Shown here piece by piece: positions 1 to 345 of a stretch of DNA of 345 nt. The position numbers were made by a program, and so were the translations under genes. The stretch lies in the NCBI RefSeq assembly GCF_003334305.1, contig NZ_QOWS01000083.1. The stretch is one strand, 5' to 3'. Numbering within the stretch: the first letter of the stretch is position 1; each line of letters opens with the position of its first letter. Source of the stretch: Escherichia coli. Lineage in GTDB: Bacteria > Pseudomonadota > Gammaproteobacteria > Enterobacterales > Enterobacteriaceae. The notes beneath the pieces were generated by a model. That model worked only from the letters and a program-made list of their open reading frames with translations, ran no database searches and was not told the DNA's origin.

Positions 1-183
1 TCACGCCTGAAGGGAAAGCTGCACGTTATCAGCAAGCGTTACACTCAGCGCATTGAGCGACATAATCTGAATCTGAGACAACATCTGGCAAGGCTGGGAC
101 GGAAGTTACTGTCGTTCTCAAAATCGGTGGAGTTGCATGACAAGGTCATCGGGCATTATCTGAACATAAAACACTATCAGTAA
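1..183 (+). CDS. insB: IS1 transposase InsB (InsAB' C-terminal part), 3' partial: last 60 codons plus stop
   Basis: Frame 1 is open from position 1 to TAA at 181-183. Manual translation: [60 protein letters not shown]. The ...[23 protein letters not shown] tail matches the IS1 InsB C-terminus as I recall it. The 5' end lies outside the window. Confidence 0.88.
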
Positions 184-198
184 GTTGGAGTCATTACC
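176..198 (+). repeat. IS1 terminal inverted repeat (about 23 bp), overlapping the insB stop codon
   Basis: ATCAGTAAGTTGGAGTCATTACC is the reverse complement of the IS1 end consensus GGTAATGACTCCAACTTA(T/C)TGAT. In IS1 the insB stop lies inside the terminal repeat (established knowledge). Exact repeat length is from memory. Confidence 0.75.
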
Positions 199-268
199 TC
201 CTCCCGAACTCAAAGCTATCATACAGATAATTACTGGTTAACCCTATATAGGGCATTTTAAAGTGTTG
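199..268. other. 70-bp AT-rich non-coding spacer between the IS1 end and the IS3 end; origin unidentified
   Basis: No ORF of meaningful length on either strand. Sequence TCCTCCCGAACTCAAAGCTATCATACAGATAATTACTGGTTAACCCTATATAGGGCATTTTAAAGTGTTG matches neither IS terminus as I recall them. Confidence 0.6.
236..253. repeat. Two overlapping perfect palindromes: GGTTAACC (236-243) and CCCTATATAGGG (242-253)
   Basis: Seen directly: GGTTAACC and CCCTATATAGGG each equal their own reverse complement. Function unknown; could be a protein-binding dyad or coincidental. Confidence 0.5.
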
Positions 269-307
269 TGATCTTACCCAGCAATAGTGGACACGCGGCT
301 AAGTGAG
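269..307 (+). repeat. IS3 left terminal inverted repeat (IRL), approximate extent
   Basis: IS3 has imperfect terminal inverted repeats of roughly 39-40 bp (established knowledge). The inner boundary cannot be confirmed without the right end, so the end coordinate is approximate. Confidence 0.55.
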
Positions 308-320
308 TAAACTCTCAGTC

Positions 321-328
321 AGAGGTGA
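321..328 (+). promoter_or_regulatory. Shine-Dalgarno / ribosome-binding site for IS3 orfA
   Basis: AGAGGTGA contains GAGG at 322-325, 8 nt upstream of the ATG at 334, which is suitable spacing. Confidence 0.55.
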
Positions 329-333
329 CTCAC

Positions 334-345
334 ATGACAAAAACA
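334..345 (+). CDS. insE: IS3 OrfA (transposase N-terminal DNA-binding subunit), 5' partial: first 4 codons only, M-T-K-T
   Basis: ATG ACA AAA ACA directly follows the SD. IS3 OrfA begins MTKT... as I recall, and the K-12 gene name for IS3 orfA is insE. Only 12 nt are inside the window, so the call rests on the IS3 context rather than on the ORF itself. Confidence 0.75.

Follow-up and report, generated by a model that had tools for sequence, protein, structure and literature searches.

A probable right end of the fec-adjacent IS1F, followed by an omptin gene relic and the left end of IS3, in a 345-nt stretch of Escherichia coli DNA

The IS1 copies of E. coli K-12 include the canonical consensus elements IS1A and IS1E and a non-consensus copy, IS1F, described as the "type 4" IS1 of this strain, which differs from IS1A by 73 mismatches (90.5% identity) (PMC12428005, PMC12903888); IS1D is 98.8% identical to IS1A (PMC12903888). 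When the consensus copies IS1A and IS1E are absent, K-12 shows almost no IS1 transposition, and the IS1F copy located next to the fec operon is immobile in this strain (PMC12428005). If InsAB' is over-produced in trans, then IS1F becomes the most often mobilised of the non-consensus K-12 copies (44% of events), and the authors ascribe this trans-mobilisation to the greater likeness of its two ends, i.e., to inverted repeats that are distinct and more symmetric (PMC12903888). IS1F shares with IS1A/IS1E the length of 768 bp, the arrangement of insA, A6C site, insB' and terminal repeats, and the reading frame. In the K-12 MG1655 reference, the annotated "insertion sequence:IS1F" occupies NC_000913.3 4518472-4519239 beside fecI and comprises insA7 and an insB7 pseudogene.

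The window, i.e., the whole stretch of 345 nucleotides that was analysed, contains the terminal part of such an element together with parts of two other genetic units. The features identified were as follows.

Positions 1-198, plus strand: the right-hand 198 bp of IS1F (IS1 nt 571-768), identical at 198 of 198 bases to the IS1F of K-12 MG1655 and to the fec-adjacent copy of locus L001.
Positions 1-183, plus strand: the 60 final codons of InsB, the C-terminal portion of the InsAB' transposase, as read from the translated peptide, with the TAA stop at 181-183.
Positions 176-198, minus strand: the right inverted repeat (IRR) of IS1F, which shares bases with the InsB stop codon and, from the end inward, has the sequence GGTAATGACTCCAACTTACTGAT (pattern match).
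Positions 199-268, minus strand: 70 bp left over from codons 194-216 of an omptin gene (OmpT-like outer-membrane protease), identified by alignment to the omptin of p113.6k.
Positions 194-256, minus strand: a 20-codon ORF, the PGAP "hypothetical protein" WP_113705808.1 (MPYIGLTSNYLYDSFEFGRR), the sequence of which is that of the omptin fragment.
Positions 269-345, plus strand: the left end of IS3, with a terminal repeat starting TGATCTTACCCA, a leader and the first four transposase codons (MTKT, ATG at 334), identified from PGAP and from the pairing of the repeats.

No RNA family was detected anywhere in the window by an Rfam scan with E values up to 1. Frame 1 of InsB is open over the 60 codons, and the 60-residue tail matched positions 167-199 of the 199-position NF033558 profile (NCBIfam IS1 family transposase) with 36.7 bits, a score that falls below the whole-protein cutoff only because the query is a fragment. 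PGAP labels the gene "IS1-like element IS1F family transposase". We consider, with a probability of about 95%, that window 1-198 is the right end of the IS1F located at the fec-adjacent locus, in a copy that has lost its function through an insB amber codon. The right end of IS1F is an already known, reference-annotated element, so that the observation made in the earlier note is correct but ordinary; IS1F has been named in the K-12 reference for decades and two 2025 papers deal with its mobility, and there is little significance in the finding beyond a correct annotation. Those parts of the element that lie outside the window were read on L001, the locus that matches the full 345-base window exactly. 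There, insA is open over 91 codons, and the A6C frameshift motif AAAAAAC is found at nt 307, as in both IS1A and IS1F. Between the L001 copy and the K-12 IS1F there are just two differences, at nt 156 and 210, neither of which lies in the window.

The earlier note had claimed that the sequence diverges by roughly 10% from canonical IS1. We compared it with IS1A (K-12 NC_000913.3 19796-20563, annotated as "insertion sequence:IS1A") position by position and gap-free, both elements being 768 bp long. Window 1-198 differed from IS1A at 17 of 198 positions (3, 27, 39, 42, 45, 51, 60, 66, 78, 81, 84, 91, 107, 108, 133, 144 and 180), which corresponds to 91.41% identity, and 91.4% was also the identity to many copies annotated as IS1A or IS1B in a BLAST search of 5,426 complete E. 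coli genomes. Across all 768 positions, 73 differences separated the K-12 IS1F from IS1A (90.49% identity), and 71 separated the L001 copy from it. The estimate was thus close to the measured divergence (8.6% in the window and 9.5% across the whole K-12 element), and the alignment did not give the near-100% match to standard IS1 with which the claim would have fallen. IS1D must be likewise distant from the window, because it is 98.8% identical to IS1A.

All 17 changes fall within the last 60 InsB codons, and 14 of them are at third codon positions (binomial p = 4.7e-5, with equal use of the three positions as the null). Two first-position changes, CGG -> AGG and CTG -> TTG, are synonymous, and the sole replacement relative to IS1A is at codon 36 (window 106-108), where a second- plus third-position change (TCG -> TTA) replaces Ser by Leu, so that the two InsB tails differ in 1 residue of 60. 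With 16 synonymous changes and 1 non-synonymous change, the substitutions are mostly synonymous in the InsB frame (dS 0.50, dN 0.007, omega 0.015, Nei-Gojobori). When IS1F and IS1A were compared over insA, 19 of the 22 changes were at third positions (p = 4.2e-7, omega 0.088), and in insB beyond the overlap the figures were 32 of 43 (p = 4.3e-8, omega 0.078). The InsAB' of an intact IS1F copy (L006, see below) differs from that of IS1A in 17 of 232 residues. The low omega values, together with the excess of third-position changes, show that the divergence between IS1F and IS1A accumulated under purifying selection for a working transposase, and IS1F is therefore a separate lineage, i.e., a true iso-IS1 and not a degraded IS1A. 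The earlier suggestion of a distinct IS1 isoform agrees both with this pattern of purifying selection and with the 100% identity of window 1-198 to IS1F.

We also considered whether a canonical IS1 (IS1A/IS1R type) might have drifted neutrally after its inactivation, in which case the divergence would simply be decay. Such a history would fit the pseudogene state of the fec-adjacent copy and its immobility in K-12 (PMC12428005), but the omega values, 0.015 for the window and close to 0.08 for the element as a whole, are incompatible with neutral drift. In addition, IS1F and IS1A differ without any indel, the element has kept exactly 768 bp, and the frameshift motif and the repeats are conserved. 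Furthermore, an intact and recently transposed element, the malM copy of strain 203740 (L006), has these 17 differences as well. In this copy the transposase is annotated as intact, nt 542 belongs to a TGG codon, and the tail agrees with the window at 198 of 198 bases. The perfect 9-bp duplication on its two sides, GAAATGAAG, is what a recent IS1 transposition leaves behind. The InsAB' built from it scored 242 bits against NF033558 (cutoff 100). Neutral decay of a canonical IS1 was therefore rejected on the basis of dN/dS, and we give it next to no credence. The divergence from textbook IS1 is real, and it reflects an old isoform and not a sequencing error or decay.

Two residues of InsA, affected by nt 156 and 210, set the L001 copy and IS1A apart from the K-12 IS1F and the intact malM copy, in which the changes His34Pro and Thr52Lys are found. 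Residue 34 sits between two cysteines (CSHC), which we take to be part of the zinc-finger motif of InsA.

The full 345-base window, with its flank, was found with a 100% match in at least 13 genomes, and at a coverage of 80% or more in 2066 of the 5,426 genomes. Four loci with the flank of the window were opened (L001, L005, L009 and L011), and in all of them the element adjoins fecI/ykiE of the ferric-citrate operon. An internal stop, and with it a pseudogene, is annotated in 5 of the 5 fecI-adjacent copies examined, i.e., in these four and in the K-12 copy (L002), which has another right flank. The stop is an amber codon (TGG -> TAG at IS1 nt 541-543, with the change at nt 542, in the context FEVVV*MTDGW), read directly in L001 and K-12 only, and its last base lies 28 bases upstream of window position 1. 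The K-12 IS1F, with a tail that is base-for-base that of the window, shares with the window-flank loci both the fecI/ykiE left neighbour and this amber codon. The window copy was placed at the fec-adjacent IS1F because its right flank (omptin relic plus IS3) matches that arrangement. From this flank identity and from the five examined relatives we infer that the amber codon is present in the window's own copy as well, at a position outside the window, and that with its InsAB' frame so interrupted the copy is dead. The element would have become fixed beside the fec operon, and would later have been inactivated by the insB amber codon just upstream of the window.

The earlier note had read the open InsB frame as a sign of an isoform "rather than a decayed copy". 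This holds inside the window, but it fails upstream, where the fec-adjacent copies carry the amber codon: an open frame in a short window says nothing of the rest of the gene, and here the stop is 28 bases outside. "Not decayed" would be fully right only if the window came from an intact, autonomously active IS1F copy. Intact copies with tails identical to that of the window do exist, with L006 and its fresh 9-bp target duplication as an example, and when a 90-nt IS1F segment was searched for exact matches, 2190 records had the TGG version and 1876 the TAG version; the amber position itself lies outside the window. However, the right flank of the window, with the omptin relic followed by IS3, is that of the fec-adjacent arrangement, four of the four examined copies with this flank as well as the K-12 copy have an annotated internal stop, and the fec-adjacent copy has no target duplication. 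An origin of the window from an active copy is thus very unlikely, and we retain the amber-bearing fec-adjacent copy as its source.

The target-site duplication of 8-9 bp was absent around the fec-adjacent IS1F in the two copies checked (L001 5431-6198 and L002 3431-4198). The element is preceded by GGGGATTTC and followed by TCCTCCCGA, or by GACCATGTT in K-12. The lack of a duplication is expected for an old copy with an adjacent rearrangement. The left flank on the fec side is common to K-12 and to the lineage of the window, whereas the right flanks are wholly different from the first base after the element: the yjhU region in K-12, and the omptin relic and then IS3 in the window. The stretch thus does not come from K-12 itself, for all that its IS1F part is identical. 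With a common left flank and right flanks that part at this base, the IS1F right end is a rearrangement breakpoint of the fec island. The block formed by fec, IS1F, the relic and IS3 was also observed on small circular records labelled as plasmids, NZ_CP021680.1 (L009, 23 kb) and NZ_CP060942.1 (21 kb), with 99.4% identity to the window.

The DNA that follows the IS1F end, window 199-268 on the minus strand, matches the omptin gene carried by plasmid p113.6k in frame over nt 580-649, with 67 of 70 nt identical (95.7%), so that the relic peptide QHFKMPYIGLTSNYLYDSFEFGR aligns with QHFKMPYIGLTGNYRYDSFEFGG of the omptin. This omptin gene is carried on avian E. coli plasmids. In L001 no omptin homology was found beyond IS3 or before IS1F, i.e., the homology ends at both IS boundaries. 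The 70-bp spacer is thus an internal fragment of an omptin gene that has lost both ends to IS1F and IS3. The ORF of WP_113705808.1 (20 residues, present in many genomes) represents the omptin frame, entered at an internal Met and continued into the IS1 end, and is very probably not a gene. Hence, the tiny "hypothetical protein" between IS1F and IS3 in many genomes is what remains of an omptin gene.

On the other side of the relic, the "IS3-like element IS3 family transposase" annotated by PGAP starts at L001 6334, which is window position 334. From its left end at L001 6269 the IS3 extends over 1258 bp to L001 7526, where an imperfect inverted copy of this end terminates. No duplication was observed in the 3-base flanks of this IS3 in L001 (TTG and ATA). 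In ATCC 11775 and Nissle 1917 the IS3 at this junction is truncated or swapped for other IS remnants; because IS3 varies there between strains, this junction is a hotspot of IS-mediated rearrangement.

At the other extreme of the relic, window 1-198 terminates with ATCAGTAAGTTGGAGTCATTACC, an IS1-type right terminal repeat (pattern match, 176-198). The terminal-repeat change cited in the earlier note is real: the window has ...CTTACTGAT where IS1A has ...CTTATTGAT, the difference being at position 180. Read inward, i.e., as the reverse complement of window 176-198, the repeat is GGTAATGACTCCAACTTACTGAT compared with GGTAATGACTCCAACTTATTGAT in IS1A, and position 180 is the single difference between them. 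In L001 this IRR pairs with a left inverted repeat (IRL), GGTAATGCTGCCAACTTACTGAT, 768 bp away, as a repeat of about 23 bp that starts with GGT(A/G)ATG. Over 23 bp, IRL and IRR have 3 mismatches in IS1F vs 5 in IS1A. Relative to IS1A, the IS1F ends have C and not T at IRR position 19, and A and not G at IRL position 4, so that they are more alike, and window position 180 is one of these two changes that raise the similarity of the ends.

The window holds two parts of a DDE-type insertion sequence, the C-terminus of InsB and the 23-bp right-end binding site of the transposase. The fec-adjacent IS1F is unable to produce a transposase of its own, but with its ends intact it can still be moved by one supplied in trans, as published for K-12. 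It can be imagined that the fec operon, the amber IS1F, the omptin relic and IS3 travel as one horizontally transferred module, with the IS1F right end as a fixed internal scar, and that the dead IS1F with its symmetric ends is kept as a trans-mobilisable carrier of the fec genes to new replicons; we regard this as a speculation with rather poor odds.

The window spans only the right quarter of the element, and by itself it says nothing of the type of the left part, so that it could in principle be the right half of a mosaic IS1 with a left part of another type. Mosaics are real. On plasmid p720632_86 (L008, 1004-1771) we found an element that is IS1A-like over approximately nt 1-372 and IS1F-like beyond, with 43 differences from IS1F and 40 from IS1A, and with insB and the transposase intact. 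Furthermore, the best identity to the window varies from record to record in an almost unbroken series of values between 87% and 100%, and tails that are 95-99% identical to it occur in at least 4975 plasmid records, for the most part of Klebsiella and Escherichia. However, the tail of the L008 mosaic is 98% identical to the window and differs from it at 4 of 198 positions, whereas those of true IS1F copies are identical to it, and every locus with the flank of the window that was aligned or read has a full IS1F-type element. A mosaic was thus judged unlikely, with a tail that is exactly that of full IS1F copies and a flank context that agrees, and we hold the chance of such an origin to be only slight, below even the one given above to an active copy. 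The end of a full IS1F-type element remains the preferred reading of window 1-198. The L008 element itself points to recombination between IS1 isoforms, which would explain the graded identities among IS1 copies. IS1 variation is a continuum, in which the IS1F-type right end is common and the "canonical" IS1A is one variant among many.

One further IS1F-type copy, in the O157:H7 strain PV15-279 (L007, 1004-1771), keeps TGG at nt 542 but is interrupted by another premature stop (GAG -> TAG region, nt 382, MD*QW). Because this stop differs from the fec-adjacent amber codon, IS1F has been inactivated more than once, in independent events.
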